The notes beneath the pieces were generated by a model, which saw nothing but the letters and a program-made list of their open reading frames with translations, was not told the DNA's origin and made no database searches. A program made the position numbers and the translations under genes. Of a stretch of DNA of 53,448 nt, positions 1 through 19,336 are shown one piece after another. The stretch lies in the IMG/VR virus record IMGVR_UViG_3300031753_000009, positions 1 through 53,448 of that record; one strand, 5' to 3'. Source of the stretch: a virus (Duplodnaviria > Caudoviricetes). The stretch's first letter is position 1; every line of letters starts with the position of its first letter.

Positions 1-2455
1 TGAACGTAACTGTGCAAGCCGTGCTCGGGGATGTGCCAACCGTCACTCTGCCTCGCCAATCGTCACTCGTGGCGGCGATCGAGGGAGACGTGCCGCAGGA
101 GGTGACGGCCGGATTAGGCGGCTTGTCCCACAGGTTGTTGGCTGTGCGCACCGTTGCCGTCGAGCTGTCGGTCAAGGAAACTGCAATGGTCGCAATTGAC
201 GTGTTGCCCTCGATCTGGACGGTGCCGGTCGTGCCTTGCAGCAAAACCGGGTAGGTGCAGCTCAGGAATTGGTTGCCCACGACGTTATTGTTCGGGGCTC
301 CCGTCATGCTCAGAAGCACGCCGTAAATCGTGTTGCCACTCGATCCGCAGTTGAACTTGTTGCCGACGATGTTGTGATGGGCGGCGCTGTTCGCGCTCAG
401 TAGAATCCCACCGTAGGAACCACTGGTCGTCGTGTTGCCCAGAGATTCAATGTGGTTGCCGGTGAAATTCAGATTTTTGACGGCGGCGTTTGCGTCGGAG
501 TAGATCGAACCTTGCACGTAGCCGAAATGAAGTCCTTCAACACTGAAGGCGCTGGTCGTCGTTGCCGTCGAAGTGAAATTGAAAAGGGTCGCGGCTTGCG
601 TCGGAACGAGCGGGTTGATCGCATAAACTTCGGAGCTGGTGAAGTTTGTTGTATCGATAACCGCAGCACCTTCGACCGAAAGTATGGTTCCGATCGCATC
701 CCACAATGCGGGGGAAACATTGGAAACATCGAGGGTGCCGCTAAGTAAGCGTACTCCGTAACGATACCCGTAAATCAACCCCGCGCGCACCTGCAATCCA
801 TCGAACTTGGTGTAAGTCGAAGAACCGACATCGATGCGGATAAACTCGCCGTTTGCCGCTGTGTAGGTTTGCAGGTTCTTGGGACCCGTGTTGCCCTGGT
901 TCCCGAAGGCCCCCACGGTGAATTTATTGGATGAAGCGATGTTAAGGATGTCCGCGGCGCCGTTGAGCATCCACGCGCATTTATCGACACAATAAATCAA
1001 ATTGTCGCCAAGAACAACGCGGCCGAGCCCGGACGAAGCAGCGCTCGAATCGACCTTGATAAGCTGAAAAGCATTGGCGATGCGCAACTTGTTCAGCCAC
1101 ACGTTGACGAACACCGAGCTTTCAAACAGGGCCGGATAGGTCAGTGGCGTCGTTTGCGAGTTGTCCTGTGCGGGCCAGAAGAACCCCATGTCCGAAACTT
1201 CAACGCCGTCCATGCCGCCGAACACGGATGTCGAAGTGTTGGAAATGAAAAAATTAGTTCCGCCATTGAAGGGAAACTCATTCAGGCTGGACGGCCCGTC
1301 GCCGTAAAATTTAATGTGGTTGAGTGCAATAGCCGAGCTTTGCGAGGCCAGCCAATACGTGCCGGACGGCGCGTACACCGCAACATTCGCCGAGATCGCG
1401 GCAGAAACGGCATTGGAAACCGCCGTCGTGTCATCCGTGCCGTAGCTGAATTGGCCGCCGACCTGATACGGCACGAGGTTGAGCTCCGCCCCGGTGCCGC
1501 CTCCTCCCGTCGTATTGACAGGATTGGAGGGCAGAACCGAGCAATTGCCCGGCGTGACACTGGCAAGAACCGCCGTGACGGCATTGCCCGACACCGTGAC
1601 GGAGAATTGCGGTTGCGTGATGCATGTTCCGCCGGTCACCGTGAGGGTTTGAGTACCGTTAGTGTAACCCGAGCCACCCGTCTGCACCGAAGCGCTCCAG
1701 GTGCCGGACCACGGCGTTGCCAGCGTCGTAGCGAACGAGAGAGTCCAGGAATTGCCCGAGCAGCCCGTGATGGTTCCTGCCTGCGGGACGCCTGCGGCAC
1801 CCGAGCCGTGCAGGATGATGTATTTGCCGGTGTCTCCCGACACGCAATTCGCCGAAGCGCTGGCGAGAGTCGAAGTGCCTGCCGCGATCGTGCCGTCGCT
1901 GTAGCTTACCGTGTCGCCCTTCGCGTTGTACGGGGGCGCCTTGACGTTGATCGTCGAAGCGACGGGCGGAACGCCGCAATCCTTGACCAGCGTGCCGGAT
2001 GTATTGTTCCAGCAGACGAGATCGCCTGAAACTGTCGTTCCAGGTCCGGTAATGCCGCCGACCGTGTAGGGGAAATTATATGTGACGCCGTTGATGTTGA
2101 AGGCGAGCGGAACGGCCGAAGCGCCATTGTAGGAAAAGACCGAGAGTGTTGCCTGCGTGGGGGTGATCCCCAGGCACAGCGCCGAATAGGCTTGCGTGAT
2201 CGGCGCCGTGTTCTGGCAGATGCCTGGCCCTTGCGTCGTTACGCCGATGCTGGACAGGAAGCCGGAAGCAGCCGTGCCGGCGTCGATCACAATGCCCGGC
2301 GCAATCCACATGACCGCGTGACCCGGCGTGACATTGCCGGATTGCTGCACGGGTTGCGTGTGCGCTACGCCCATCAAAGCTAACAGGGATGCGACGATTG
2401 TCGCTATTTGACGCGATTTGACGCGATTTGTCGGAGATGCAAAGATGCGGCTCAT
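1..2455 (-). CDS. Tailspike/tail-fibre-like beta-helix protein with putative signal peptide; runs off the window
   Basis: Absent from the ORF track (no stop in window). Both ends hand-translated in the same frame. ATG at 2455 overlaps the upstream TGA (ATGA). N-terminus MSRIFASPTNRVKSRQIATIVASLLALMGVAHT-QPVQQSGNVTPGH; pectate-lyase-3-like INVKAPPYNAKGD and YGTDDTTAV; ends RGRVTVGTSPSTACTVTF at the edge. Confidence 0.75.
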   Translation of the reverse strand, partial: MSRIFASPTNRVKSRQIATIVASLLALMGVAHTQPVQQSGNVTPGHAVMWIAPGIVIDAGTAASGFLSSIGVTTQGPGICQNTAPITQAYSALCLGITPTQATLSVFSYNGASAVPLAFNINGVTYNFPYTVGGITGPGTTVSGDLVCWNNTSGTLVKDCGVPPVASTINVKAPPYNAKGDTVSYSDGTIAAGTSTLASASANCVSGDTGKYIILHGSGAAGVPQAGTITGCSGNSWTLSFATTLATPWSGTWSASVQTGGSGYTNGTQTLTVTGGTCITQPQFSVTVSGNAVTAVLASVTPGNCSVLPSNPVNTTGGGGTGAELNLVPYQVGGQFSYGTDDTTAVSNAVSAAISANVAVYAPSGTYWLASQSSAIALNHIKFYGDGPSSLNEFPFNGGTNFFISNTSTSVFGGMDGVEVSDMGFFWPAQDNSQTTPLTYPALFESSVFVNVWLNKLRIANAFQLIKVDSSAASSGLGRVVLGDNLIYCVDKCAWMLNGAADILNIASSNKFTVGAFGNQGNTGPKNLQTYTAANGEFIRIDVGSSTYTKFDGLQVRAGLIYGYRYGVRLLSGTLDVSNVSPALWDAIGTILSVEGAAVIDTTNFTSSEVYAINPLVPTQAATLFNFTSTATTTSAFSVEGLHFGYVQGSIYSDANAAVKNLNFTGNHIESLGNTTTSGSYGGILLSANSAAHHNIVGNKFNCGSSGNTIYGVLLSMTGAPNNNVVGNQFLSCTYPVLLQGTTGTVQIEGNTSIATIAVSLTDSSTATVRTANNLWDKPPNPAVTSCGTSPSIAATSDDWRGRVTVGTSPSTACTVTF

Positions 2456-2943
2456 GAGAGGTCGATCGCCGTTATGTATATGTCCGCCGTCGCCAGCGTC
2501 GGTTGTGGCGTCGTCAGCGAAAACCAGATGTTCATCAGCCCGCCGATCTGACCGAGCACGGCAGCGGAGAACCGCGTGTTGTTGGCGTATGAACTGAGGA
2601 ACGGCAATAGGAGGCTGTTCGATCCGGTCAACGCGGCGTAGGATTGTGTGGCGGCAACGATCGGCGTGCCGCCCTTGGACGGCTGCGGATAGAACCCGCC
2701 TTGCGCCGTTGCGAGGCTCATCGAGGGGTTGGTGACGATGATGCTCACCAGCATGAACGCGGTAATGTAGAGCGGAATAGGAATCGGCTGATCGAATGTC
2801 GTCGAGAAGTTGACGCTTTTGGCGGAAGCGATCACGCGCGCGTAAGTTGGAGCGGCGCCGAAATCACCGATCACGCCATTCGTAACCCAGGAAGTTAGAT
2901 GCCCTGGTGTTACGAGTCCACTTTGAAGGACTGCGCCACTCAT
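2452..2943 (-). CDS. 163-aa virion appendage-associated protein; no signal peptide, no Cys
   Basis: Start MSGAVLQSGLVTPGH at 2943 (ATGA overlap); paralogous to 4012-4551. Confidence 0.7.
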   Translation of the reverse strand: MSGAVLQSGLVTPGHLTSWVTNGVIGDFGAAPTYARVIASAKSVNFSTTFDQPIPIPLYITAFMLVSIIVTNPSMSLATAQGGFYPQPSKGGTPIVAATQSYAALTGSNSLLLPFLSSYANNTRFSAAVLGQIGGLMNIWFSLTTPQPTLATADIYITAIDLS

Positions 2944-3986
2944 GGATTGTCGAACTCGATGCCGCCGCCAATCGTAGTAATCGATCCGGTTGATGCTGAG
3001 CTGACAACCAGCAGATCGTAAGACTGTCCGGCAGTGCAAGCAGATGTGTGCGTCGTATCGTTACAGGTTGTTGCCGGACCTGTTATGGTGCAGGTTATTT
3101 GATTTGAAGGCGTAGCGTTATTGATGCGCCATGTGGCTGTAAGGGTTTGCCCGGTAGCGGGCGCCGTCGAAACGAGATAGAGATTTTTGAAAGTGCCGCC
3201 AAATGGGCACAGCCCTTGAATGGCTGCTTCGGTTGTTGCCAAACCAATGAGGATGTAAGCGGTGGTATTTTGAGGCAGCGCAGTGGCGGCGCTCGACATC
3301 GGAATGATTTGGCGCGTTGAAGCCCACGAGCCTGTTCCCGAGCCGTTCGTTTGCAGGAATTGAAGGTTCGTGCCGCCTGTCGGCACTTGAGATTGCGCAA
3401 GCGAGCCGGTCAGGTCCCCAAAACCAGCCTGCGAGACAGTGCCGCTGCCGTTTGCTTTAAGCGCCCCATTGACGGAACCAGCTCCGCCGTTCGCCGCTGG
3501 TAGAACCCCTGTAACGGTTGAGGTGCCGAGTGCAAGCGTGAAGCCTGTCCCGGTGCCGCCTGTTGTCAGCGTCCCAACTGCCGTCAAGGACGAAGTTACG
3601 ACATTCGTGGCAAGCGTGGTACCGGTAAGCGTGCCCGCCGCGGCAGGGGCGGTGCATGTCGATCCAAGCGTGCATGTCTGCCCGTTGACTGTCGTAGCGG
3701 GGTTCACAAGATCGGCGTTGGTGACGAGCCCTGTGGCCGTGAAGCTGTTAATGACGGTCAAGGCGGAGATCGTCAGGCCGCTGGGGAGCGTGCTCGTGCC
3801 GGAACAGACACCAGAATTGTTGTACAGCAACTGCCCGCTGGACGGAGGGCCGCAAGCATTGATGATGTCTTGCGCGGTGAGAACGGAACCGCCTGTCAGG
3901 CGGACAGGATTGGTTTGCGCATAGGCGATCGCGGCGCCGAACAGGAGGGCGCTGAGGAAGTAGAAAAAGGAAGGACGCAATTTCAT
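2940..3986 (-). CDS. Gly/Thr-rich tail-fibre-like protein with signal peptide (348 aa)
   Basis: Start MKLRPSFFYFLSALLFGAAIAYA-Q; fibre-like segments VTGVLPAANGG and LQTNGSGTGSW; 8 Cys. Confidence 0.7.
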   Translation of the reverse strand: MKLRPSFFYFLSALLFGAAIAYAQTNPVRLTGGSVLTAQDIINACGPPSSGQLLYNNSGVCSGTSTLPSGLTISALTVINSFTATGLVTNADLVNPATTVNGQTCTLGSTCTAPAAAGTLTGTTLATNVVTSSLTAVGTLTTGGTGTGFTLALGTSTVTGVLPAANGGAGSVNGALKANGSGTVSQAGFGDLTGSLAQSQVPTGGTNLQFLQTNGSGTGSWASTRQIIPMSSAATALPQNTTAYILIGLATTEAAIQGLCPFGGTFKNLYLVSTAPATGQTLTATWRINNATPSNQITCTITGPATTCNDTTHTSACTAGQSYDLLVVSSASTGSITTIGGGIEFDNP

Positions 3987-4011
3987 TTTTGTTCGGGTGC
4001 AATGATCGTTC

Positions 4012-4551
4012 TTATGACCAATCCTGTATCCGCACGCCCACATCGCATGTGAGCGCAGCCGCATTGGCGACCGTAACGTTGATGTAAATCGTTGCCGCCG
4101 TGAGCATAGTCGTGGCGACACTGCCGGCAATGGTTGAGTTGATTATCACCGAGGATGATGTCGCTCCGGTTATCGTCGCTGCTGCCACGATATTCGTGCC
4201 GCTCGCGCTTGCCCCGGTCCACAAACCAAGGGCGGCGAGAATTGGCGTGGTCGAGCAATTGGTAATTCCGACTGCAACAACTTGGTAGCGGGTTATCGTA
4301 GCGGGGATCGCGATTGTAGCTTTGTCACCAGTACCGGAGCCGAGGACAACCGCCTTGGCCTGATAGACACCAGCACTGTCGAGAGCCGGCGCACACTGCA
4401 TCGGCGAACCAGCAACAAGCGGCCATCCAGTTGTACCGCACCCGGTCGGCGTCGTATTAACCGGAGGGATTTGTGCCAAAGCTGGCGCAATAATCCCCAG
4501 CACGAGAAGCGCGAGAAGCGCGAGAACTAATGAATATCGGCGCATCAGCAT
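4012..4551 (-). CDS. Secreted-type appendage protein with signal peptide
   Basis: MRRYSLVLALLALLVLGIIAPALA-Q; 4 Cys; start at 4551 or 4545. Confidence 0.75.
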   Translation of the reverse strand: MLMRRYSLVLALLALLVLGIIAPALAQIPPVNTTPTGCGTTGWPLVAGSPMQCAPALDSAGVYQAKAVVLGSGTGDKATIAIPATITRYQVVAVGITNCSTTPILAALGLWTGASASGTNIVAAATITGATSSSVIINSTIAGSVATTMLTAATIYINVTVANAAALTCDVGVRIQDWS

Positions 4552-6728
4552 GATCCACCTACGTTATCCACAATGGTTACCGCTGTTGATGATGTTCCCG
4601 CGTATGAAATAAGTTTGCAGGTTCCAGAATTTGTGCCGGCCACCCACTCTAATTTAGCAAATCCACCTCCGGGCGCTGTGCCACTCGCAGTTATCTTTGC
4701 TTGTCCGATCTCACCTATTGAAAGCGTCGCTGCGGACGCCTCGTTGCCGACTTGAGTGGTGCCTGTCACGTTTCCGTTGCCAATGTAACCAAGATTATTG
4801 GTGATACGGACGTGACTACCCGGAACGTCGAGTTGCAAGACGCCTTGGCCGCTGGCATGAACATTGTCGTGGTAGTCGAGATAATCGAGCCCAGTGCCAT
4901 TGAGGACCAGGCACTGATTGGTAGTCAGACAAATGTTGTCATGAGCGACGGTGTTAATCGCAAAGGTTTGATCGAAGGTAAGGCAATATAAGAGCGACGA
5001 AATTCCACAAATGTTGTCGGAGATAATATTGCCGGTACCAGTAGCGATCTCTATACCAATATAACCATTCCCGATGCGGTTGCCTCTAATTTGGCTATTG
5101 CCAGAAAACGCGCCGTTAAACTGCATCACGTCGCCGAACTGGGAGGCACCCGATAGAATCGTGTTGCCCTCGATAATATGCCCCGAGCCGGCAAAGACCC
5201 CAAAACCTAAATAGACTGCCTGACTAATCACGTTATGATGAAGATTGATATTAATCGGAGCCGAGCCGCCATTCGCAGCATCGATGAGGATATTATAGGC
5301 CTGCGACGATGAGAAGTCGGTGGAATCAACTATCGTCTCAGACGAGCCGCCGTCAAAGTGGAACGAACTCGATGTAGTGTCGGCCACAAGTTGCCACACT
5401 ACTCCAGCGTCGGCGACGACAGTCAAATAAGGCGCAACAGTCGGCTGCGTGCCGGTCCCGCCGGTGCCGTTCGTTTGCGTGAAGCTGACGGTAACGCCAG
5501 TTATCGCACCGCACCCAGGGCCAGAAATCGGAAGGGCATTCGCGGGGCTCGATGGGAACGAGGCGTAGTAGCCGGAATAAGAAATGGTCAGCGAACCGCT
5601 CAGCGCGCCGCCAGTCACGGTCCCGGTAACGGTAGCAAGGGCCGGTCCGCCGGCTTGGTTAGTTCCAACCGTTCCGCCTTGGATGGCAAAAGTACAAGCT
5701 CCACTACCGCCGCCGCTGCCGCCTGCCGCAACGCTCGCGCTTGCGACGCCGCGCCCGGCCTGCATGTAGTAGGTATGGCCGTTCGCATTCGAGAACACGG
5801 CGACGGTGCCGACCGCATACGCCGTCCCGGCACCACCGTTGTTCGACCAGTTCGATAGTGATTGGCTTCGTGCACTCGGCAATTGCAGCGGCCAGACCTG
5901 ATCGAAGGTGGAGTCGTGAATACGGCCATTGGCTTCGAAGCTTGTATTACTGATGTGGCCAAGGTTCGCATAGGCGTAGGTGGCATACACCTTGTCGGCG
6001 ACATGATCGGCGGACTGAAATAGCATCCCGTCGAGCCCGCCAGTGGACCCGACCATGTGAAACTTGCACTGCTGGCACGCCGGCCCCATTACCAGCGCGT
6101 TACTTGTCGGCAAAATACCCCCAGCACTGTTGCCGATGCCGGGAATGCCGGCTCCCCAAAATTGCAAATTGGATACTAGCATCTGCGATGCGTTCGCGGT
6201 GAACGGCGTCACATCGTGATTACAGTTGCTGATGGCCGTACCGGGCTGCGAAGCGCCCTGAACGATCAGGCCAGGTATGGCCCAGGTGAGACCGGTAAAC
6301 GTACAGTTGACCCCAGGCGGCAGCACAACGATGCCGCCCGATCCATTACGGGCGTAGCCGACCTGATTAGCCTGCAACGCAGCATAGAGATTGGCGAATG
6401 CGGTGTCGTTGTTCGTCGACCCGTCACCCTTGACCCCGAACCATGCAGCGCTGACCGGCGTATCCGGTGTGCACGCCCATCCGGTCGTGGTGCCGGTGAC
6501 GCGGGCGGTTATCTGGCCAACGGTGCTGCAAAATAGGCTGTCGAACCAATTCGAGATCGTATCGCCCTTGCACCCCGCAGGCGTCGCCCCATTAGTGCCG
6601 AGAAGCTGGTTGGGACCGGCACCGCAAACCGAAGGAATTGAACTGGCGTTGACGCCCGAACTTAATTCTTGCGCCGAGGCTGAGAGAGTGAGAAGAAGAC
6701 CTGCAATTGCGCCAATAATAAATTTCAT
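4545..6728 (-). CDS. Pectate-lyase-like beta-helix tailspike with signal peptide (727 aa)
   Basis: Start MKFIIGAIAGLLLTLSASA-Q at 6728 (TGATG overlap); WFGVKGDGSTNNDTAF motif; beta-helix rungs IIEGNTI, IRGNRI, IISDNIC; 16 Cys. Confidence 0.8.
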   Translation of the reverse strand: MKFIIGAIAGLLLTLSASAQELSSGVNASSIPSVCGAGPNQLLGTNGATPAGCKGDTISNWFDSLFCSTVGQITARVTGTTTGWACTPDTPVSAAWFGVKGDGSTNNDTAFANLYAALQANQVGYARNGSGGIVVLPPGVNCTFTGLTWAIPGLIVQGASQPGTAISNCNHDVTPFTANASQMLVSNLQFWGAGIPGIGNSAGGILPTSNALVMGPACQQCKFHMVGSTGGLDGMLFQSADHVADKVYATYAYANLGHISNTSFEANGRIHDSTFDQVWPLQLPSARSQSLSNWSNNGGAGTAYAVGTVAVFSNANGHTYYMQAGRGVASASVAAGGSGGGSGACTFAIQGGTVGTNQAGGPALATVTGTVTGGALSGSLTISYSGYYASFPSSPANALPISGPGCGAITGVTVSFTQTNGTGGTGTQPTVAPYLTVVADAGVVWQLVADTTSSSFHFDGGSSETIVDSTDFSSSQAYNILIDAANGGSAPININLHHNVISQAVYLGFGVFAGSGHIIEGNTILSGASQFGDVMQFNGAFSGNSQIRGNRIGNGYIGIEIATGTGNIISDNICGISSLLYCLTFDQTFAINTVAHDNICLTTNQCLVLNGTGLDYLDYHDNVHASGQGVLQLDVPGSHVRITNNLGYIGNGNVTGTTQVGNEASAATLSIGEIGQAKITASGTAPGGGFAKLEWVAGTNSGTCKLISYAGTSSTAVTIVDNVGGSC

Positions 6729-7162
6729 CAATTCACCGTGCCGCGAATGAATCCGACCGTGGAGAGCGTCAATGTCGCGCATGCCGTAGAGCTGATAACT
6801 GCGATGATGCCGGTAGAATACGCCACCGGATACGATGGATACGTAATCGATCGCGAAGAGCCCGCGCCGATATCGACGCATTCAACCATGGCATTGGCGG
6901 TCGATCCGTTGCCCGCGGTCGTTGCTCCGTTCGACGGCACGGTTTTGGTGTTGAAAACCATCAACCAGCAGGCAGCGGTGCATTCGGCATAAATACCGAA
7001 AAAGTTGCCGTTGGTTGCCTTGAGGACACAACTCGATACTGCCGAGCCGCATGTCACGTCGATCAGCGTTACGTTGGGAGGCGTGAGCCGGACTTGGCTC
7101 TGTGCCTGCGCGTCAACCGCCCACACCAAGAGGCAAAAAACAGCGAAAAAGCTGCGAATCAC
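6728..7162 (-). CDS. Small beta-rich protein with signal peptide
   Basis: GTG start at 7162 overlapping the upstream TGA; MIRSFFAVFCLLVWAVDAQA-Q; 6 Cys in the mature part. Confidence 0.7.
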   Translation of the reverse strand: MIRSFFAVFCLLVWAVDAQAQSQVRLTPPNVTLIDVTCGSAVSSCVLKATNGNFFGIYAECTAACWLMVFNTKTVPSNGATTAGNGSTANAMVECVDIGAGSSRSITYPSYPVAYSTGIIAVISSTACATLTLSTVGFIRGTVN

Positions 7163-7443
7163 TTCCGCCTCACGATCCAATTGACGACAATTACAAAAAC
7201 CGCGTAGCCGCCGAGCCCCACAAGCTGCTCGATTGTCGGCGTATGAGGCACGACAGTCATCGCGAGCCAGAAGACCGATATGACAGTCAACAGGCTGAAC
7301 AGGTTGCCGAGAGCGATGATAGTCTTCTGGGAGAGCGGCTTGAGCAGCAACAGCAGGAAGTCGGCGGCGCGCTCGGATGCGCCCGAAGATTCAGGCGTCG
7401 GAACGTCGGGTTCCTCGACCACTGTGAACTTCGGTGACGCCAC
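7159..7443 (-). CDS. Two-transmembrane small membrane protein (holin-like size)
   Basis: GTG at 7443 after AGGAG; two hydrophobic segments and a basic C-terminus (VRRK). Confidence 0.55.
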   Translation of the reverse strand: MASPKFTVVEEPDVPTPESSGASERAADFLLLLLKPLSQKTIIALGNLFSLLTVISVFWLAMTVVPHTPTIEQLVGLGGYAVFVIVVNWIVRRK

Positions 7444-7651
7444 GCCTAGTCTCCTCGATCGCTTGCTGGAAATCAGCCATGGTAGAGCCGGAAGGCTCAG
7501 ATTCTTCGTTCCCCTTATCCTTTTTAAGGGTAGCATAGAGCGTCGTTAAAGCCTTTAAAGCGTCTATGCGCTCGGGCAACGGCGTTTTGTCTTTCATCGC
7601 TTCCTTGGCGATGGAAAGCCCAACAGATTCAAGATCGGATCGGAAGGTCAT
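7391..7651 (-). CDS. Hypothetical protein
   Basis: 86-aa ORF in the operon, overlapping both neighbours. Confidence 0.6.
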   Translation of the reverse strand: MTFRSDLESVGLSIAKEAMKDKTPLPERIDALKALTTLYATLKKDKGNEESEPSGSTMADFQQAIEETRRGVTEVHSGRGTRRSDA

Positions 7652-9495
7652 TGTTGCTTTAGCTGTCCTTCAACAGCAATCATGCTTTTCATGGAATCAA
7701 TAGCCGCAGCATTGACCTTATCCATCGATTTGGAAAGCGCTTTGACAAACGCAGGACGCGTCAAAACCTGCGCCGCTATGCTAGGACCAACAAAATTCAA
7801 AGCCGCTGCTCCCATCGCCGCTGCCCACTGTCCGGTAACGGCAAGCGTGACGGGCATTGCCGACTGCGCAAACAGCGGTCCCGCTACGTTGCTTTTAGAC
7901 GTACTGGCAAGTTTGTCCCAAACACTCATCTTTTGAGCTGCCAACACCAGATCATCAAACGCTTGTTCCAATGTAGCGTTGCCCGTTGTTTTGAACAACA
8001 TGTTCTTGGCGTCAGGCGATAGGTTTTTATAGTTAGTCAAAAATGTGCTCAATGAAAAACCTTCCATGTCGCCCAACTTGGAAGGATCGCGATTGCCCAT
8101 ATGAGACAGAACAGTTGCAGCGAGATCGCCTTGCTTCGCTTTGCCGAGCGAATGCCACACAGTTTCAAAAGCTTTCAAGTCGGCGGGGGCTTTGATGCCC
8201 GCTTGCCCGACGAGGATATTATAAACTTTCTCGGCAGCAATGGGCATTTCGCGAGTGCCCAATAGTTTCTTAAACGCCGTGCGATAATCATCCATTGCAT
8301 CTTTGTATGTAGCTTTAGCGTAATGCCAATCTTGCAGCACGTCCTTATTGCCTAAGGATTTAACCGCTTCCTCAATATCCTGATCCAACGCACGCTGGAC
8401 TTGGCTGATCTGAGCCGCGTTAACAGATTTGTCGTATCGCGGCGATAACATTTCACCAAACTTAGATTTCAAAGCTTTCATGTCAGCAAAAGACAGCATG
8501 CCTCCCGTCGAATCCAATAAAGTCTTTACTTCCGTCAATTCAGGAGAATCCGTTATGTCTTTGACTTGTTTCGTTGATGCCGCTCCGACAGGTTTCAGAA
8601 CGGCATTGAGCAAATTATTAGATTTGAACATATCGGCCGGACTGAACGCCTGCTGAATCGCGTTCATAATCTTACCGGCTTCGTCTTTGCGTTGTTCCCA
8701 TCCGGTAAGCAGGGTTTCTTGCAGTTCGTGCCCCGTATCGTACTTAGGTTTAGGAGCCCCGAAAGCCGACGCGATCTCTTGCTGCTGCTTTGTAAACTGC
8801 TGAAGATTACCTTCGATAACTTTCTGCATGCGATTGGCGCTGCCGATCGTTTGCGGCAGCACGTTCGCCTCTAACCATTGTGCAGTTTTACCCCCTACGC
8901 CCGTCGTGGCAGCGGTAGGCGTCAATCCAAGTCGCTTGAACGTATCGTATACTTCATCAAATCCAGGACGAGCTTTAGCGGCGGTCAACGTTCCGCCGGA
9001 TAGTCCTCCACCTAGCATTCCACCTGCTAAACGCCCGACAGGGCCGGCCAATTCTGCACCCTTTTCGGCCCCTACGCCGCCGCCCAAAGCTATTCCAGCT
9101 TTGACAAGCAAGGATTCAGGTCCAATCATTGCAGCAGGAACGAACTCAGCAACGCTCTCAGCATATTTGCCTGGAGTTGTTTGCGTTTCGCCCCACGGAC
9201 CGGTGATGGATTGAATCGTCTCTCTTATTTGCTCCGTCGTAGGCGCGAACTGAGCAAGAATGCCCAGCGGTCCTAACGCAGACGTAGCAACCTGTTGTCC
9301 GGATTCTTTTGAAGCACCCAGCCGTTCAGCGACGGCTCCGCCCGCTTCGCGCAGCTCGGCAGGAAGTCCCACCAACCCGGTAACACCTTTTGCCAAACCA
9401 CGCGGAACTGCTTTTGCAACGTCTTCAATTACACCCGGTTCCGCATCGGCAAATGCGTTATCGTGGGCATCGAATTGATCGAACGGATTTGCCAT
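7648..9495 (-). CDS. Putative internal virion/DNA ejection protein
   Basis: 615 aa, helical, NPFDQFD N-terminus, Gly/Ala hydrophobic stretches; third of three genes after the nozzle. Confidence 0.6.
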   Translation of the reverse strand: MANPFDQFDAHDNAFADAEPGVIEDVAKAVPRGLAKGVTGLVGLPAELREAGGAVAERLGASKESGQQVATSALGPLGILAQFAPTTEQIRETIQSITGPWGETQTTPGKYAESVAEFVPAAMIGPESLLVKAGIALGGGVGAEKGAELAGPVGRLAGGMLGGGLSGGTLTAAKARPGFDEVYDTFKRLGLTPTAATTGVGGKTAQWLEANVLPQTIGSANRMQKVIEGNLQQFTKQQQEIASAFGAPKPKYDTGHELQETLLTGWEQRKDEAGKIMNAIQQAFSPADMFKSNNLLNAVLKPVGAASTKQVKDITDSPELTEVKTLLDSTGGMLSFADMKALKSKFGEMLSPRYDKSVNAAQISQVQRALDQDIEEAVKSLGNKDVLQDWHYAKATYKDAMDDYRTAFKKLLGTREMPIAAEKVYNILVGQAGIKAPADLKAFETVWHSLGKAKQGDLAATVLSHMGNRDPSKLGDMEGFSLSTFLTNYKNLSPDAKNMLFKTTGNATLEQAFDDLVLAAQKMSVWDKLASTSKSNVAGPLFAQSAMPVTLAVTGQWAAAMGAAALNFVGPSIAAQVLTRPAFVKALSKSMDKVNAAAIDSMKSMIAVEGQLKQQ

Positions 9496-11294
9496 TAAGG
9501 CGATCCCAAAATTTTATCCGCTTGTCCCGCGCCATATTTGGCGTCAAAATCACTTCGCAACGAGGGATTATTACGAAGCATTTGCTTAGCGGCATCGGGA
9601 ATAAAACGTTTGGCTCGCTCATCGTTTTTAGCCCCGGTAAAACCGGCGGCTTTCTGCGTCCAAAACGGCATCTTGTCGATGTCGGAGCGATCGTCGAATC
9701 CCATCTTATATTCGCGCGCAATCCGATCGGCCTCATCATAACGCTTTTCAAGAATAGAGAAAAACGCACCGGGAGACGAAGCCTGCTGGTAGATTTCCTT
9801 GAACGCCTTATCGAGGTAAATCGTTGCCCCGCGTGAACCTGCTGTGGCGGCGTCGGCAAAAGATTGAGTAGTCAACATTTTTTGTAAAACTTTGGCCTTG
9901 GCAGCTTGCGACAAATCAAGCTTTTTCTCTTGCGCCACTTTATCAACCATGGCATCGCGGTCAGCTTCGGTTTTGGAACGCAGTTTTCCAAGATCGTTAA
10001 AAAGCCCTTGGTAAGCATCTAAATTCATGCGGCGCGTTGCCTCAGCAATCAGGCCAACTGCTTCGGGATTTTCTTTGGCGTATGCAGCAATTGCTTCGAG
10101 ATTCTTGGCGCTTTCAAACGCTCCCATCAATTTAACTTGCCGGCCAGGCGGGATGAACCCTAAATCAGTAGGTTTCATCCCCGGATAATGCTCCATTTCA
10201 TTAAACAACGCCTGGTCTATTTTTCCGGCCTCGCGCGAAGAACCTGCTACGCGGCGTCTTGCCTCCAGCGCCGCTTCGGTTTCACTCATACCTTGCGCGA
10301 TCAACTCCCTTTCTATTTTCTGTTTATCGACCGCACGGTCCGATGAATCTGTAACTCGGTAAATACCTGCATAGTGCGCAGATTCAATTTGCGTTCTTAG
10401 TTGGTTACGTTCCTGTTGCGAAATGACCTGATCGGGATGCTCCTTCTGCCAGGCGGCAACACCTCGATAAAACTCCATCGCTTTCTGGTCGCCACGCTTG
10501 ACCGCATCAAGCCAGCCGGTGCGATCGGCCAACGTCTTGAGGTCAGGTGCCAGCTCGGCATACGCCTGCCGATCCGTTTCGAACTTCTCCACCTTGTCGC
10601 GATAATCGATAAGCTTGTTCGCGGTATCGACTTGCCTTGCCTGCATCTCCAGAATCTCAGGCACCATCCCAAATTCCATCATAACCAGCGTTTTTTGGCT
10701 ACCAAACCGGGCAGCATCAGCCATGGTCTTGGCTTTCCACGCCGCCATGTCCGTTTCAAGCAACTTGTTGGTGTCCTGAAACACCGCACGTTCCATCTCG
10801 AAACGGTGCAAGGCCAGATTAGTGTTTTCCTTCCACGCCTCGAAAGCCGACTTGTAGGCACGCTCATCGTTGTTGTGAATCGCCGTCATCGCCGCGGCGG
10901 ATGCGTTCAACGCCGACGTGATCGGAATCCTGGTGAAAGCTGAAGCCAGCAATCCGAAGATCGAGCCAATGGACCCGAATCCCTCAAGCGGTCCTGTAGT
11001 CCGCGCCTTCCGCTCTTCGTCGGCATTCCATGCAGGAGGCATCTTGGCGATGTTGGCCGACTCGGCGCCGTACGCTTTTTCCATCTGGTCGCGCCGACGC
11101 GACAGCAACGAATCGAGCTGCCCCGCATTGCGTTCCATTGCAGCGCCATGTTGCCGCTCGATATCGGCGAGCTTCGTCCCTGCCGCTTCAGTCTTGCTTT
11201 CAAGGCCGCGCAAGAAATCAGGCGTGCTGGACGCAGCCGGCGTAGCGTTGGGAGCCGCGATCCAATCGGGAAGCTGAGTTTGTGCATCGGCCAT
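9495..11294 (-). CDS. Putative internal virion/DNA ejection protein
   Basis: 599 aa, helical/coiled-coil; C-terminal FDAKYGAG motif; position in operon. Confidence 0.6.
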   Translation of the reverse strand: MADAQTQLPDWIAAPNATPAASSTPDFLRGLESKTEAAGTKLADIERQHGAAMERNAGQLDSLLSRRRDQMEKAYGAESANIAKMPPAWNADEERKARTTGPLEGFGSIGSIFGLLASAFTRIPITSALNASAAAMTAIHNNDERAYKSAFEAWKENTNLALHRFEMERAVFQDTNKLLETDMAAWKAKTMADAARFGSQKTLVMMEFGMVPEILEMQARQVDTANKLIDYRDKVEKFETDRQAYAELAPDLKTLADRTGWLDAVKRGDQKAMEFYRGVAAWQKEHPDQVISQQERNQLRTQIESAHYAGIYRVTDSSDRAVDKQKIERELIAQGMSETEAALEARRRVAGSSREAGKIDQALFNEMEHYPGMKPTDLGFIPPGRQVKLMGAFESAKNLEAIAAYAKENPEAVGLIAEATRRMNLDAYQGLFNDLGKLRSKTEADRDAMVDKVAQEKKLDLSQAAKAKVLQKMLTTQSFADAATAGSRGATIYLDKAFKEIYQQASSPGAFFSILEKRYDEADRIAREYKMGFDDRSDIDKMPFWTQKAAGFTGAKNDERAKRFIPDAAKQMLRNNPSLRSDFDAKYGAGQADKILGSP

Positions 11295-11295
11295 G

Positions 11296-12369
11296 TTAGC
11301 TGATCGAGATTGTCTTGCCCGCGCTGCTTACCGTGCTCGTATTTTTGCCCCCCAGCGCGCCTGCAAACGACGCAATCGCCTGCATGAGCGCGTTGTTGTT
11401 CGTCTGGTCGATCCCCACCAACGCCTGATAGAGCTGAGACGATAGCCCCGTTTCGTTGATCCCGGTCTGGAGCAATTGCTGCTCAATCTGCCCCATGCTG
11501 GACACGGCCTGGATATCGACCTGGTTCAATTCCTGAGCCAGGGCGCTGTTGGCTGCCGGATCGGTCGATTGACCATTCGCCGCGTACTTCGACATGATGC
11601 GCGCCTTGGCGGCAGCGGTTGCCTGCCCCAGCGCGGCTTGCAGCGCAGGCGGCAACGTACCGGACTGAAGGTACTGCTCAAGTTGCGTGCCCTGGGCCGA
11701 CAACTGCTGAGCTTGCTGCTCCAATTGCGCTTGCCCCTGAAGCGGCTGGTTGCCCTTGATCAGATCGAGCCCTAGCCCCGCCCCCGCGGCTGCAATGCCC
11801 AGAGGATTGTTGGTAACGGATTTCGTCGCGCCTGTGAGAAGCTGATTCCAGAACCCGCCTCCGCTGCCGGACGAACTCCCGGAAGCGGGAGCCGCTACTC
11901 CCGTCCCGGTGTCGGTTGTGCCGATCCCCGTTGCTGAGATGCCTGGGACCGAATCGGTGACCGTGCCCGACGCCGCGGCGTAATCCGCAGGATTGACGCC
12001 GATCGCAGAGCCGCCCGTCAGAATGCCGCCATCGCCGACACCGGTCCCCGTTGCAAGGCCGGGAATGCCATCAGCCGTGATGCCAGGAACGGCACCTGTG
12101 ATCGCATCCGCAGCGCCCGCCGCTGCATCGCCGCCTCCGAACAAGCCGCCGAACAGTCCTCCTGCATCGCCGGCACCACTGAATAGTCCTGTGAGTCCGC
12201 CGGTGCCGAGCCCGAAAAGATCGGCGCCCAATCCGATGCCCGTGCCTGCGAGCGCGAGTCCGCCAAGCCCCTCCAGTGTTTTAGTAAGCTCAGGTCCCTC
12301 AAACGCGTGCGTGACATCGGTGCCGAGATTGCCGAAGTTGCCGTGGATCAGATCGCTGAGGAAAGACAT
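11296..12369 (-). CDS. Putative DNA pilot/ejection protein
   Basis: Gly-rich N-half and Gln/Ala-rich C-half, as in P22 gp7-type ejection proteins. Confidence 0.55.
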   Translation of the reverse strand: MSFLSDLIHGNFGNLGTDVTHAFEGPELTKTLEGLGGLALAGTGIGLGADLFGLGTGGLTGLFSGAGDAGGLFGGLFGGGDAAAGAADAITGAVPGITADGIPGLATGTGVGDGGILTGGSAIGVNPADYAAASGTVTDSVPGISATGIGTTDTGTGVAAPASGSSSGSGGGFWNQLLTGATKSVTNNPLGIAAAGAGLGLDLIKGNQPLQGQAQLEQQAQQLSAQGTQLEQYLQSGTLPPALQAALGQATAAAKARIMSKYAANGQSTDPAANSALAQELNQVDIQAVSSMGQIEQQLLQTGINETGLSSQLYQALVGIDQTNNNALMQAIASFAGALGGKNTSTVSSAGKTISIS

Positions 12370-13189: not shown

Positions 13190-15250
13190 TCAGCCCCGGT
13201 AACTAATCCGAGGATCGGTCGAGAACTTGGCGCTCACTAGCGACACATCGGCCTCACTGGTTTTCCACGTCATGCCGAGCAACACGCCTTGCTGCCCGAT
13301 CGCTTGCGGAGGTGTCAGGAAGTACCCCGATTGTGCCGGACCGACAATCGTATAAGGTTGCGTGTTGGTGAATGTCGTGCCATCCGGGTTGATGCCAACG
13401 GCATCAAGCAAAGCCGTGATGTTCGGCGCGTTGTTGGTGTTGTACTGCCACAAGCTCCATAAACGGCTGTCGGCCTTGCTGAACTCGTAGCCGCCGGGGG
13501 CATCCCACAATTTTGATTGCACCGTCTTCACGAACCCCGTTGAAGGCGTGTTGAACAAACGGCGGATCGTTGTTCCATCGGTGCCCCACGCCGTCAGGAC
13601 CGAATTGATTTCCTGGGATGAAATGAAAGTCAGAGCAATGTCCTGCGAAGCCGGGAACCAAATCTTGTCGTTCCACAAAAACAATTTGTTGGTCCGCGCG
13701 CCGCTGATCGGATCGATGATCGGCGCTAAGATGATCCACACCTTCTTGGAAAAAATCTCCGCTTTGGCAGAAGACAATTGCCCGTTACCGAAGTTGGGAA
13801 CAGAGCCCCACACACCGTCAAGCGCTTCGCTGATCTTGTCGAGCGCCGCACCGCGGGAACGATACACGCCGATCACGTTTGCCAACAGGATGTCCCGACC
13901 GTTAGTCAGCACGGAAGCCGGGAACGGCGTGCCCACCTCGGGATCGGCATTCTGATTGGTGAATGTCGTGGTCGGAGGCGAACCCGAGGTCTGCACGCCC
14001 GAGATATAATTCATCGACGAATCGGCAATGAGAAACAAGAATCCATTCGAGTTGACGAGCCGCACATAATTCACGCGAAGAAACGCATCGCCTGAGCTGA
14101 AGCTACCGCCGCCCGAGGCGGTAGAAAAATCGGAGAACGAGCCGGGAGCCGTGAAATCCACCTCGTTGCCGCCCGCAACCCAGATGCGCCCCTGATAACT
14201 CTCGACTGCCGAACCCTGCACCCCGAACGGCATGAGCTGTACCGAAGCGCTCGCCTGACTGGCGCTATCGGTAATGACAACCGTATTAGGAATATTGGGA
14301 CCTGTACCTGGCGCGTAATAAATACCCGAATTAACCAAGTTTATGCCGATAAGCGACCCTGGAAGCGGCGTGGACACAACTGCATAAAACACTGCTTGAG
14401 CGCCAACAGCAACAGACGACGGAACATCGAAAGCCAAAACCGGATTTACATAATTACTGCCGCCCGCTACGACGCCAACAGTTGAAACAGAAAAAATATG
14501 CCCTGCTACTGCGCTTGAACCCGAGTATACAAGCGTTGCATTAATCGAACCGCCTACGCCGCTTTGCGTACCGCCGGAAATAACCACTGTCGGCGTATTG
14601 CCGACCCGATATCCCGTCCCAGGATTGACTAAACTGATCGCCGTGATGACACCGCTGACGATAACCGCCGACGCCACGACGCCGCCACCTTGACCGCCGA
14701 TCACGCTGATGTTCGGCTGCGTATAGTACCCAGCGCCGCCATTTGTCACCGTCACCACGGGAGACAACGTGCCGGAAGCATAGATCAATGTACCGTCCCA
14801 CAGCCAATATCCATTAGTCTGATTGGCAACGATGATCAAATATTGCTGCGCCCATTGTGAGATGCCGACATTGAGAATCGACGGCGCCGCGATGGTGCCA
14901 GGCGCCAATATGGTCGTTGCCGCAGTGGTGCTGGTGTTGACGACAACCACGCTGCCATCGGACAAAAACACGCACATATAGGGCGTCGAGCCGATGTTGA
15001 AGAAATAAAAGCAAACGACGGTCGGTCCCGAACTGGTGTAAACGGCCGGTCCGATACCTGGGAGGGCGCGCAGATTGCGTGGCGCGATCGGAAAGAACCC
15101 ATCCATCCAATAAACTTGCGCATCCGCCACCCCGGCGCGCGTGGTCGAGGTGTTAATGCCCTGAAACTGCTCCATGACCAGCGGTTCGGGCGCCGCCGGG
15201 GCGTACGGAGAAGGTTGAAGATCGGGGGGCGGAGAGGCGGTTATGGGCAT
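13190..15250 (-). CDS. Tail nozzle / packaged-DNA stabilization protein
   Basis: 686 aa, beta-rich, FQGINT N-terminus, YQGRIWVAG; follows the adaptors; internal GxGY repeat insertion. Confidence 0.65.
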   Translation of the reverse strand: MPITASPPPDLQPSPYAPAAPEPLVMEQFQGINTSTTRAGVADAQVYWMDGFFPIAPRNLRALPGIGPAVYTSSGPTVVCFYFFNIGSTPYMCVFLSDGSVVVVNTSTTAATTILAPGTIAAPSILNVGISQWAQQYLIIVANQTNGYWLWDGTLIYASGTLSPVVTVTNGGAGYYTQPNISVIGGQGGGVVASAVIVSGVITAISLVNPGTGYRVGNTPTVVISGGTQSGVGGSINATLVYSGSSAVAGHIFSVSTVGVVAGGSNYVNPVLAFDVPSSVAVGAQAVFYAVVSTPLPGSLIGINLVNSGIYYAPGTGPNIPNTVVITDSASQASASVQLMPFGVQGSAVESYQGRIWVAGGNEVDFTAPGSFSDFSTASGGGSFSSGDAFLRVNYVRLVNSNGFLFLIADSSMNYISGVQTSGSPPTTTFTNQNADPEVGTPFPASVLTNGRDILLANVIGVYRSRGAALDKISEALDGVWGSVPNFGNGQLSSAKAEIFSKKVWIILAPIIDPISGARTNKLFLWNDKIWFPASQDIALTFISSQEINSVLTAWGTDGTTIRRLFNTPSTGFVKTVQSKLWDAPGGYEFSKADSRLWSLWQYNTNNAPNITALLDAVGINPDGTTFTNTQPYTIVGPAQSGYFLTPPQAIGQQGVLLGMTWKTSEADVSLVSAKFSTDPRISYRG

Positions 15251-16185
15251 TAGTAGCGGCCATAAATATTGACTGCCCGCCCGATTCGCGCCGAGCGCGA
15301 ATATACGTTCAACTGCTTCTCATAAAGGTCCAAGTAAAACTTAGCCGCATTGTAGTTTTGCAACTCCAGCATACCAAGATGTGCAGAGAAATAAGGAACG
15401 GCGTCATCCCAAGGTTGAGGTAGCGCCTCGACACTTTGATTCGTAATCAAATCTTGTGGAAGGCAGTAACAATCTAACTCGTACTGATATGTTTGAGAGG
15501 GGAGAGGATAAACATAAAATGAACCGTTTACACCTTGTCCGTATTGTGCGGCCATGGTAGGTATGTATTGATATTGGAAGGGCCAAGAGCGGATTTGTGC
15601 CTGATACACTGAAAAACTGTAAACCGGTAAAGAATAACGATAATTCGCGTATATGACTGAGATTCCCTGAACCGCGAATACTGCTGAAACCCCAGGACTT
15701 CCCCTTAAATTTACTCCACTGAACGGATATACTTCCTGAGCGAGATTCAATACATTCAACGGCTCAGTCTGAATCGTAACCGACGCGCCCGTTCCCGTCG
15801 CATCCGTGATCGTCGCCTGCGGTTGAAAGTACCCACTGCCACCATACTGAATGAACACGTTGGCAAGCGAACCGCCTTGCACGATCGCTTGCGCCGTTGC
15901 CTGCGCGCCATTCGGAAATGCACCTGTACCGCTCGGAAAGTCGGGAGGCGTGATCGTGATCGTCGGGCTGTTCGAATATCCCGAACCTCCCAGGACGACG
16001 CTCGCCGTCACGCACGCGCCGGACACAGGCGTCAATACGCGGATGCACTGCGTGCGCATCGCAATCTCGCGCCGCGACCGGTTGATGTAAGTAACGATGT
16101 CCTCGGGATTGATCAAATCCTGCTTCTGCTCGCGAAGCAGCCGTTGCGTCATCTTCTCATAATCAAACAAGGTCTGAGGCATCAC
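15250..16185 (-). CDS. Head-tail adaptor protein (paralog 2)
   Basis: YINRSRREIA...CIR and EALPQPWDDAVPYFSAH motifs; position. Confidence 0.6.
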   Translation of the reverse strand: MMPQTLFDYEKMTQRLLREQKQDLINPEDIVTYINRSRREIAMRTQCIRVLTPVSGACVTASVVLGGSGYSNSPTITITPPDFPSGTGAFPNGAQATAQAIVQGGSLANVFIQYGGSGYFQPQATITDATGTGASVTIQTEPLNVLNLAQEVYPFSGVNLRGSPGVSAVFAVQGISVIYANYRYSLPVYSFSVYQAQIRSWPFQYQYIPTMAAQYGQGVNGSFYVYPLPSQTYQYELDCYCLPQDLITNQSVEALPQPWDDAVPYFSAHLGMLELQNYNAAKFYLDLYEKQLNVYSRSARIGRAVNIYGRY

Positions 16186-16955
16186 TGCGCTCCTTGCTGC
16201 CCAGCGGAGCGCTGAAGTCCCAACTTACCGACGATCACCGGATCGTTCGCCTGTTCGTAAATCGTACGGTTGACGCTCGGATTCGCCGCCTGACGGGCAC
16301 GAGCGACGAACTCCTTATAAGCCTCGTACATCCTCGCTGCATCAGCCTGGCGCGCACCTGTCTGCGCCGACAGAAACGCCCAATAAGCCGCCAGGAACGG
16401 CACCGCATCCGTCCAAAGGTACGGGATGGCTTCGAACGTCGTGTCGTCCACCAGCGTGACAGGCCAGCATGTGCAATCGAGATAAAGCTGGTACGTGGTG
16501 TTCGGCGGCGGATCAAGATAGAAGCTGCCCGATGCAGACGAACCGCCGGATGCTGGCGGAGCCGCCCCTTGCCCATACTGACTCCACACAGTCGGTGTGC
16601 CGTTGATCGGAACCGGGTTGTTCAAATGATAAAGGTCGAACCACGGCCAATTGCGAGGCGCAATCCACTGCTGCCCCTGCCCAACGCCGAACATAATCCG
16701 CCGCACGTTGATGGCACCTTGAATACCCGCCGCATTCGGCTGCCCGGTGAAGTTGATCTGTGAAAAGTTATAGGCGCGCTGCCCGATCGTGCACGTCACC
16801 TGCCCGATAGCGCGTATGCACTCAGCCTCGCCGGCCAACTGGCCGCGAGCCTTGTTGATCCACAGATTGAGATTAGCCGTCGAATAAAGCGACTGCGGTG
16901 GCGCCGGTAGTTGAAGCAAGTTCTGAAGATCGGTCTGATAGGCTGTAAGGGCCAC
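16182..16955 (-). CDS. Head-tail adaptor protein (paralog 1)
   Basis: WINKARGQLA...CIR and EAIPYLWTDAVPFLAAY motifs; position after the capsid genes. Confidence 0.6.
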   Translation of the reverse strand: MALTAYQTDLQNLLQLPAPPQSLYSTANLNLWINKARGQLAGEAECIRAIGQVTCTIGQRAYNFSQINFTGQPNAAGIQGAINVRRIMFGVGQGQQWIAPRNWPWFDLYHLNNPVPINGTPTVWSQYGQGAAPPASGGSSASGSFYLDPPPNTTYQLYLDCTCWPVTLVDDTTFEAIPYLWTDAVPFLAAYWAFLSAQTGARQADAARMYEAYKEFVARARQAANPSVNRTIYEQANDPVIVGKLGLQRSAGQQGAQ

Positions 16956-18295: not shown

Positions 18296-19336
18296 TTAAA
18301 ACTGGTTGCCCTGCAAGTTGTACCCAATGAAGCCCGAGGAAGGCTTGGCGGTCACCAGATCGTAGCCGACGACAACCACGCCCTGCTGTCCGATTTGCCC
18401 CAAAGGCACCAGCGAATAAAACCCCGAGAAGTCGAACGCAGCATCCTCGGACAGGTACATCGCCGTGTACTTGACGTTCGCGCCGACCACCGTGCCCTGC
18501 GGGCAGAAATGATCCGCAAAAATCGGAACGCCCGAGACGATGAGATTCGGGAAAGACGACCGAACCTGCGTGTCCATGGTAAACGCAGAGCCGGGCGGAG
18601 GATTGATCTGTTCAATTCCGATGAAATCGTTGTTCAAGGTCGCGTAGTCGCCGGGGTTCATGACGACGAACGTCGGCGCTTCGCCGCCCGCCTGATCGGT
18701 CACATAAGCGAGCAAGCTCGACATCGACTTGCGGGTAAACCCGACCGTCCCGAGAGAGAATGTCCCAGAGTTCAGGTTGATGTACTGACCCTTGAACGCC
18801 GAATTACCCTGGGCATTACGATTGATGCCGCCGTACGTCGGGTAATTCGTGCCGTTGTCGAACGCGTTGAGGAAGCTGTCGGGGAGCAACGCATTCGATG
18901 CGTTGTTGGTAAACATCAAGCGCGCCATGTTCTGCCGGGTCACGGCATACACGTCGTTCATGCGCGCTTTGAGGATACTGATCTCGCGATCGGTCGCCTG
19001 AATCACTGTTTCGCCGAAGGGGAGGGGAATCGGCACAACCCAATAGGCGAGATTGAATTGAAGATTTTGAATGCCGGGAGTGATGACCGGGTTGTTGAAC
19101 CCGCCGCCGTATCCCGTGAATTGGCCTTGGACCATGCTCTGTCCCTGGCCGGGGATCGTAATTTGATTCAAACCGCCCGCAGCGCGTTGCGCGTTGCCAG
19201 TCATGTAGAATAAACAAGGGCTTCCGAAATAAATTTGGACGAACAAACGGGGAACGAATGCGCGCCTAGTTGTGGAAGCCAACTCGCTGTACAAAGCACC
19301 TGCGGCAGGAGCGACGCCTAAACCGGGAAGCGGCAT
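18296..19336 (-). CDS. Major capsid protein
   Basis: 346 aa; AGGAG RBS; YGGINR and GVPIFADHFCP motifs typical of HK97-fold capsids; between scaffold and decoration gene. Confidence 0.85.
   Translation of the reverse strand: MPLPGLGVAPAAGALYSELASTTRRAFVPRLFVQIYFGSPCLFYMTGNAQRAAGGLNQITIPGQGQSMVQGQFTGYGGGFNNPVITPGIQNLQFNLAYWVVPIPLPFGETVIQATDREISILKARMNDVYAVTRQNMARLMFTNNASNALLPDSFLNAFDNGTNYPTYGGINRNAQGNSAFKGQYINLNSGTFSLGTVGFTRKSMSSLLAYVTDQAGGEAPTFVVMNPGDYATLNNDFIGIEQINPPPGSAFTMDTQVRSSFPNLIVSGVPIFADHFCPQGTVVGANVKYTAMYLSEDAAFDFSGFYSLVPLGQIGQQGVVVVGYDLVTAKPSSGFIGYNLQGNQF

Follow-up and report, generated by a model that had tools for sequence, protein, structure and literature searches.

A tail-fibre-position module of predicted Sec-exported, cysteine-paired fibre and spike proteins in an uncultured tailed phage

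Results

Gene organization of the module

The virus record IMGVR_UViG_3300031753_000009 of IMG/VR is a linear sequence of 53,448 bases, about 83% complete, and is analyzed here in its entirety as the window. Six minus-strand genes, named F, E, D, C, B, and A, occupy positions 7162 down to 1 of this record, and two small genes separate this module from the genes for the internal proteins (Table 1). Five of the six gene products are predicted, with strong support, to carry type I (Sec) signal peptides, and the distribution of their cysteines is that expected of proteins that acquire disulfides after export. This combination in proteins that resemble tail fibres and tailspikes is the subject of this report.

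The genes are closely packed. Start and stop codons overlap at five of six junctions (GTGA, TGATG, ATGCTGATG, ATGA, and ATGA), which agrees with an initial annotation of this DNA that had described most junctions as overlaps; from D to C there is a 25-nt gap. Gene F is translationally coupled to the membrane-protein gene upstream of it, whose true start is probably near 7443.

Gene A is cut by the end of the window. Its full-length product, P0001 (868 aa, 16 Cys), was taken from a longer contig of the same phage, and the part inside the window contains 14 Cys. A metagenome scan with P0001 gave a match only in a different contig, not in the 63-kb contig of the same phage. The mature Cys counts given previously for C, D, E, and F (8, 4, 16, and 6) are confirmed, and full-length A has 16. 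The F protein has seven in total, one of which lies within the signal, and a homologue with 65% identity is found in locus L050.

Table 1. Coordinates of the module genes, their parts, and other features of the window
Feature	Position	Strand	Description
Gene A	2-2455	-	Predicted signal, conserved N-terminal domain, long central/C-terminal region; cut by window end
A, signal-peptide part	2363-2455	-	About 31 codons; heuristic score 36.0
A, mature N-terminal domain	1946-2362	-	Residues 32-170; opens with Q-x-V-Q-Q-S-G-x-V-T-P-G-H; two covarying Cys pairs
Gene B	2452-2943	-	163 aa, no signal, 0 Cys; A-type N-terminal motif, then predicted jelly-roll
Gene C	2940-3986	-	Predicted signal (23 aa) and Thr/Gly/Ser-rich fibre-like protein; 8 Cys
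Gene D	4012-4551	-	Predicted signal (~26 aa) and B-like jelly-roll; 4 Cys
Gene E	4545-6728	-	Predicted signal (19 aa), Cys-rich N-region, predicted right-handed beta-helix, conserved C-terminal domain; 16 Cys
E, C-terminal domain	4548-4781	-	About 75 aa, end ...GTCKLISYAGTS..VDNVGGSC
Gene F	6728-7162	-	Predicted signal and small protein, 6 mature Cys; first gene of the module
Small membrane protein	7159-7536	-	Two predicted C-terminal membrane helices; upstream of F
Three large proteins (615, 599, 357 aa)	7648-12369	-	Internal (ejection) protein position
Nozzle-sized tail protein	13190-15250		
311-aa protein	15250-16185	-	Adjoins the SU10-type adaptor
SU10-type adaptor	16182-16955	-	Pfam, 1.7e-10
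Major head protein (HK97-type match)	18296-19336		phrog_9953

Signal peptides in the module and its homologues

Signals were called with a home-made heuristic, supplemented by reading by eye; it requires a basic n-region together with an uncharged hydrophobic core and a cleavage site of the small-x-small type. A score of at least 30 is reached by nine of the 300 open reading frames (ORFs) of at least 60 aa in the window. Five of the nine are A, C, D, E, and F, leaving 4 matches among the 294 ORFs elsewhere, and the hypergeometric probability of finding five of the six module genes among the matches is 3.8e-8. The other four are an ORF at 24759-25055 that overlaps two putative terminase ORFs (24377-24901 and 24874-26799), an epimerase flagged at its Rossmann N-terminus, one small membrane protein, and a short ORF. 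The initial annotation had seen Sec-like N-termini in five of the six genes and none in the core structural genes; both observations hold, with B as the module member that has no such N-terminus.

In all five proteins the predicted cleavage precedes a glutamine (A, ...LMGVAHT-Q; C, ...AIAYA-Q; D, ...APALA-Q; E, ...LSASA-Q; F, ...VDAQA-Q, where the hyphen marks the cut). Alternative cuts can be drawn in A (GVA-HT instead of AHT-Q) and in F (two residues earlier). The five segments fit the pattern expected of Sec-type signals, namely a positively charged n-region, an uncharged hydrophobic core of ~8-18 residues, and small residues at positions -3 and -1.

This pattern extends to homologues of A (44 proteins) and of E (the best 150 of 593 clusters at 50% identity that match E). 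The heuristic flags 33 of the 44 and 112 of the 150, or 145 of 194 together; the unflagged sequences mostly have a signal recognizable by eye, start upstream of one, or are fragments. Across 143 flagged signals the median length is 20 aa, with Ala at position -1 in 117 and Gln at position +1 in 73. A lipobox is found in 0 of 192 homologues. An Arg-Arg pair lies within the first 12 residues in 15 of the 192, and D too has such a pair (MLMRRYS). The cores are short and markedly hydrophobic.

The signal segments diverge freely in sequence across the homologues yet retain charge, core, and cut site. Among the A homologues P0002-P0012, which share 38-44% identity, nearly all bear a signal. In A-type proteins, the predicted cut sits just ahead of the conserved motif Q-x-V-Q-Q-S-G-x-V-T-P-G-H.

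Cysteine content and predicted disulfides

An even number of cysteines is found in 140 of the 145 signal-bearing homologues. In the loci of related phages described below, all 12 complete, Cys-containing ORFs with a signal have even counts, compared with 31 even and 49 odd counts among ORFs with no signal (Fisher 4e-5).

The cysteines also covary in pairs. In 23 sequences of the A N-terminal domain, both members of the first pair are present in 22 and a single member in 1; for the second pair, both are present in 15, neither in 8, and a single one in none (Fisher 2e-6). The C-terminal domain of E occurs with two apparent disulfide layouts, ...VAGTNxGTCK...GxGC and ...VVCGTNAGTAK...GxGVTGC, in which the first Cys shifts and the tail lengthens to match. 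Versions of this domain that have no Cys and end in Phe (P0052, P0127, P0135, and P0160) belong to those proteins that have no real signal; P0135 is flagged by the heuristic, yet reads as an ordinary fibre N-terminus. In the B family, 118 of the 120 homologues listed are signal-less, 79 have no Cys, and 30 have a single Cys.

Because even counts, paired covariation, and joint loss of signal and Cys pair point the same way, both export and disulfide bonding of the exported module proteins are well supported. Together with the conserved signals, these patterns lend strong support, at the level of sequence, to the proposal in the initial annotation that such proteins are exported and oxidatively folded.

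The fibre slot in related phages

The nozzle protein of the window retrieves 47 relatives of 62-67 kb. Five related records were examined, of which three have terminal repeats and four are estimated to be 100% complete. In 33 loci with enough flank, the slot that follows the stop codon of the small membrane-protein gene could be compared. It holds a signal-bearing gene in 28 and a signal-less gene in 3 (L047, L082, and L084), and is undetermined in 2. The initial annotation had proposed to check whether homologous loci conserve the signals, and these 28 of 33 loci, alongside the 145 of 194 homologues, indicate that they do.

Complete genomes contain 3-7 signal-bearing genes in the slot, almost all with even Cys counts. 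These are the only variable fibre candidates seen from the internal proteins to the downstream region. In G001, an Amidase_2 protein, a probable endolysin, follows the module. Where gene B occurs, the gene immediately downstream of it is signal-bearing and shares its motif (G002, G004, and G005). Neither of the other structural genes of unassigned role is variable: their products, of 311 and 396 aa, are conserved and constant in length. Where distant phages have the MANPFDQFD internal protein, ordinary signal-less fibres come straight after it. The assignment of the module to the tail-fibre position is thus supported by the slot in 28 of 33 loci, by the fibres of distant relatives, and by the lack of other variable genes.

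The small membrane protein at the head of the slot is a core gene of the clade, with 39 matches and homologues in ~30 related loci that end in RRK or RKS. Its stop codon always overlaps the start of the first slot gene, whether that gene is signal-bearing or not (also in L047, L082, and L084). It could be a holin, an ejection protein, or another type of protein. In L047, the closest relative by nozzle identity, the slot encodes a signal-less protein of 501 aa (14215-15717) with an N-terminus that appears LamG-like, followed by an ORF that appears glycosyltransferase-like, both judged by eye only.

Outside this clade, signal-bearing clusters with even Cys counts are found in a myophage, where they lie beside the tail sheath gene (L023), in a T7-like phage (L012), and in others. 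The E C-terminal domain occurs in 35 viral contigs versus 1 of 185,579 species genomes. A search for related loci in viral contigs returned no close relatives of E. The B family is also sizable, with 163 matching proteins.

Folds and domain exchange

Pfam, PHROGs, and NCBIfam contain no family matching any of the six module proteins, with the last 50 aa of A, which lie outside the window, scanned against NCBIfam only. Sequence and profile searches of the PDB likewise gave no match, whether the query was A, E, the 311-aa or the 396-aa protein, or one of the profiles A1, A2, and A3. The neighbours of an Atlas model of E are beta-helix families, with template-modelling (TM) scores by query of up to 0.55, and its feature neighbours are viral spike-like clusters; this suggests that E folds as a right-handed beta-helix. 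Full-length A also has an Atlas model, with a predicted TM score (pTM) of 0.70.

Family matches do appear among signal-bearing homologues. Of 82 that were searched, 13 match PF12708, 7 match PF13229, and 1 matches Peptidase_S74 (P0132, 1e-12). An S74 domain was found in none of the six window proteins, and the G004 counterpart of A remains below threshold (18.9 bits, cut-off 22). Signal-bearing proteins in L034 and G001 match tail spike or tail fiber PHROGs.

The model of B, with a predicted local distance difference test score (pLDDT) of 94.8, consists of an N-terminal hairpin and a jelly-roll. The matches of this jelly-roll are small proteins of uncultured phages and a phage cement protein (Z 8.6), followed by carbohydrate-binding modules and fibre tips. 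As these matches are generic, assignment of a specific function to B by fold was rejected; B could be an adaptor, a short fibre, or a cement-like protein. The family is uniform, its 163 database matches measuring 155-170 aa with 45-64% identity.

The same jelly-roll forms the C-terminal tip of long signal-less spikes with classic fibre N-termini and of one signal-bearing fibre. D is 29% identical to B over 110 aa, and D-like genes directly follow E-type genes in unrelated phages (L014 10180-10650, in L014/L015, and L035 7747-8157), an arrangement that resembles a fibre and its tip adhesin or assembly partner. The C-terminal domain of C recurs in a signal-bearing protein of G001. This protein (L104 11286-12884) has two copies of the A/B N-terminal motif, separated by a C-like domain, and looks like two module members fused into one.

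At 60-70% identity, the C-terminal domain of E is common to hundreds of proteins, P0050-P0194 among them, and it also ends signal-less proteins with classic fibre N-termini (L038 and L039). Because it is conserved to this degree across very different fibres, a docking or chaperone role is suggested rather than receptor binding. A sorting domain of the type IX secretion system was considered for this region and rejected, as neither E nor the homologues bearing the domain gave a corresponding Pfam or NCBIfam match. Judging from these shared parts, the module proteins are shuffled fibre and spike modules that swap domains with signal-less tail fibres.

Genome context and host

Most genes of the window lie on its minus strand, and no tRNA genes were found in its 53,448 bases. 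The major head protein is ~35% identical to those of two uncultured spring-water phages. The three large proteins at the internal-protein position contain zero Cys and are Cys-free in relatives as well; the last of them begins MANPFDQFD, as do proteins in distant phages. Given the SU10-type adaptor, the head protein, and the nozzle-sized and internal-position genes, the phage is therefore divergent and apparently podovirus-like. The 311-aa protein beside the adaptor is an adaptor paralogue with an added immunoglobulin-like segment, and is 47-75% identical within the clade.

Further on, the window encodes a primase-polymerase, DNA polymerase A, methylases, a serine recombinase, and sugar-modifying enzymes. 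A minus-strand cluster at 28621-33025 contains an FkbM-type methyltransferase, a tetratricopeptide-repeat protein, a serine recombinase with a resolvase domain, and an NAD-dependent sugar epimerase; the cluster may have to do with glycan modification or with lysogeny.

The host was sought through bacterial copies of module domains. The profile of B was not found in 401 sampled genomes of the class to which the sole metagenome-assembled genome with an E-type domain belongs. After the module, G004 (L101 12153-13138) and G001 (L104 15145-16935) encode small signal-bearing or lipobox-like proteins beside holin-like genes. They are possible spanins, which would suggest an outer membrane in the host.

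Discussion

Proposed periplasmic maturation and docking at lysis

The combined data suggest, with a probability that we place at about 0.5, that the module encodes variable receptor-binding proteins that mature in the periplasm and are docked on particles at lysis. In this scheme, E and probably A would be the beta-helix spikes; C, D, and F the shorter fibres; and B the signal-less jelly-roll protein. We infer attachment to the virion for the module proteins, and docking is the simplest interpretation, given that no further variable candidate for receptor binding is present in the clade. It is further supported by the ability of signal-less genes to replace the module in the same slot and by the N-terminus that mature A has in common with B.

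The proposed pathway would begin with passage of the unfolded precursors through the inner membrane via SecYEG. Signal peptidase I would then cleave after A-x-A, exposing a glutamine that may cyclise; in A-type proteins, the new N-terminus would be Q-x-V-Q-Q-S-G-x-V-T-P-G-H. Formation of disulfides by the host Dsb system and trimerisation of the fibres would follow in the periplasm. Finally, as lysis breaches the inner membrane, particles assembled in the cytoplasm with no fibres would come into contact with the fibres, which would attach to the tail. The phage would thereby obtain appendages stabilized by disulfides, which could not be made in the reducing cytoplasm. B would be the one member mounted in the cytoplasm, since it has the N-terminus of mature A with no signal ahead of it.

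More tentatively, and with somewhat less confidence than for this module itself, the same may apply to a large uncultured fraction of the tailed phages, with lineages that include T7-like podophages, podophages with SU10-type adaptors, and at least one myophage. They would finish their particles outside the cytoplasm by Sec export, Dsb oxidation, and attachment when the inner membrane opens.

Several observations weigh against periplasmic maturation with docking at lysis. No tail-attachment domain was matched in Pfam or PHROGs for the six proteins, and in 82 homologues only beta-helix families and S74 were matched. The N-terminal domain of mature A, modelled at pLDDT 72, has no fold match, with a best Z of 3.0. 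In L012, the signal-bearing genes lie between capsid and tail genes, outside the fibre slot. Searches of 50,697 phage records with A, C, and E by tblastn gave no match, so cultured phages provide no counterpart. A host with two membranes is suggested only by the lipobox-like gene beside the Amidase_2 gene in G001, and docking would have to be confined to a short interval around lysis. The signal calls themselves come from our own heuristic and from reading by eye. In addition, a study of Bdellovibrio MAT fibres describes a comparable layout in proteins that serve on the cell and not on a virion (PMC10769870).

In the principal alternative, a less probable one, the exported proteins never join the virion, and their site of action is the periplasm, the cell surface, or the surroundings once they have been released. 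They could be depolymerases that help progeny to escape by loosening capsule or exopolysaccharide (EPS); enzymes or lectins by which receptors on infected cells and their debris are destroyed or masked, for superinfection exclusion and to avoid re-adsorption; or adhesins displayed on the infected cell in the manner of Bdellovibrio MAT fibres. Signals and disulfides would be explained equally well, beta-helix folds are typical of polysaccharide-degrading enzymes, and neither the failure to detect a tail-docking domain nor the position of the L012 genes would need a special explanation. Cellular precedents exist in WceF (PMC7949094) and the MAT fibres (PMC10769870). However, this alternative leaves the particles of the clade with no variable receptor-binding protein, as the other structural genes are of fixed length. 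It also does not account for the location of the module in the fibre slot, where signal-less genes replace it in L047, L082, L084, and distant relatives, or for the domains held in common with signal-less proteins that have classic fibre N-termini. Retention in 28 of 33 relatives, with 3-7 genes per genome, would be much for an accessory function, and enzymes released by lysis need no signal, except for the formation of disulfides.

An improbable alternative is that the hydrophobic N-termini are uncleaved membrane anchors or buried helices whose resemblance to Sec signals is misleading. The heuristic does flag a Rossmann N-terminus and a membrane protein in the window, and the n-region of the A signal is unusually long (16 aa). 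Against this, charge, core length, and A-x-A are retained in segments that otherwise vary freely, and a conserved mature N-terminus begins directly after them. Signal-less B opens with the very motif that follows the predicted cut in A, and even, covarying cysteines are a signature of extracytoplasmic proteins. Least probable is that the module is host DNA on a mis-trimmed contig end or a set of morons of this one phage, as might be imagined from a linear, ~83% complete record that ends inside A. Against this, the same module is present in complete relatives that have terminal repeats, where it is flanked by the internal-protein genes and the downstream region (Amidase_2 in G001). Translational coupling links the module genes to the structural operon. 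The E C-terminal domain occurs in 35 viral contigs against 1 of 185,579 species genomes, and 401 sampled genomes of one class gave no match to B.

Implications

The accepted view is that the assembly of tailed phages is completed within the cytoplasm. To our knowledge, fibres that carry export signals and fold outside the cytoplasm would be unlike those of any studied tailed phage, and the literature searched, supplementary files aside, contains no description of tail fibres with Sec signals in tailed phages. In a study of carbohydrate-active enzymes (CAZymes) in soil prophages, signals are reported for 5% of prophage CAZymes, with structural proteins excluded there (PMC13507307).

If periplasmic maturation and docking are correct, a second compartment is added to the assembly pathway of tailed phages. 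Host range would then depend on host secretion and oxidative folding as well as on receptors, and the dsb or sec status of a host could determine whether infection is productive. Otherwise, the data would define an extensive class of secreted, fibre-like phage proteins to which no role has been assigned. Production or engineering of such proteins would need oxidising expression conditions, and they would be wrongly classified by host-range predictors and pipelines in which a phage protein with a signal is taken to be non-structural.

Comparison with known systems

Export of late phage proteins has precedent in lysis, as in endolysins with signal peptides or signal-arrest-release (SAR) sequences and the T4 antiholin RI. 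As in those cases, the module proteins would be late products routed through the host Sec system before lysis. Unlike the module, with its 3-7 large fibre-like proteins, the exported lysis proteins are the products of one or two lysis-factor genes.

Among cellular proteins, WceF of Pantoea stewartii is described as a trimeric right-handed beta-helix with a tailspike-like fold and a cleavable twin-arginine (Tat) signal that acts on exopolysaccharide (PMC7949094). It differs from the module proteins in being encoded by a bacterial gene in an EPS cluster, in using Tat rather than Sec, and in having no link to a virion.

The MAT fibres of Bdellovibrio bacteriovorus are nearer in layout. All 21 are described as having a beta-rich domain, conserved and ~130 aa long, straight after the signal peptide, followed by a variable trimeric fibre, and they divide into S74 and non-S74 subfamilies (PMC10769870). 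The module proteins share the succession of signal, conserved N-terminal domain, and variable fibre, a likeness of layout. The solved MAT structures are of C-terminal pieces. In contrast to the module proteins, MAT fibres are bacterial gene products that serve the bacterium itself, on its surface or on the invasion vesicle, and a search of 185,579 species genomes recovered the E C-terminal domain in only 1.

Tail fibres and tailspikes, exemplified by T7 gp17, P22 gp9, and the K1F endosialidase, share with the module a position after the internal-protein genes, a beta-helix or fibre architecture, domain shuffling, and several receptor-binding genes per genome. An intramolecular chaperone of the S74 type is a further likeness in some homologues (P0132). 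Known tail fibres fold and attach in the cytoplasm. The module proteins differ from them in their predicted cleavable Sec-type signals, their paired cysteines, and the lack of a detectable N-terminal tail-binding domain.

The g3p protein of filamentous phages is exported with a Sec signal, acquires disulfides in the periplasm, and is then built into the particle. Like g3p, the module members would be phage adsorption proteins that are exported and disulfide-bonded, as predicted here. The difference lies in the particle. Filamentous virions assemble at the membrane during extrusion, whereas the phage of the window has an HK97-type major head protein match and an SU10-type adaptor, and its particle is therefore presumably assembled in the cytoplasm.

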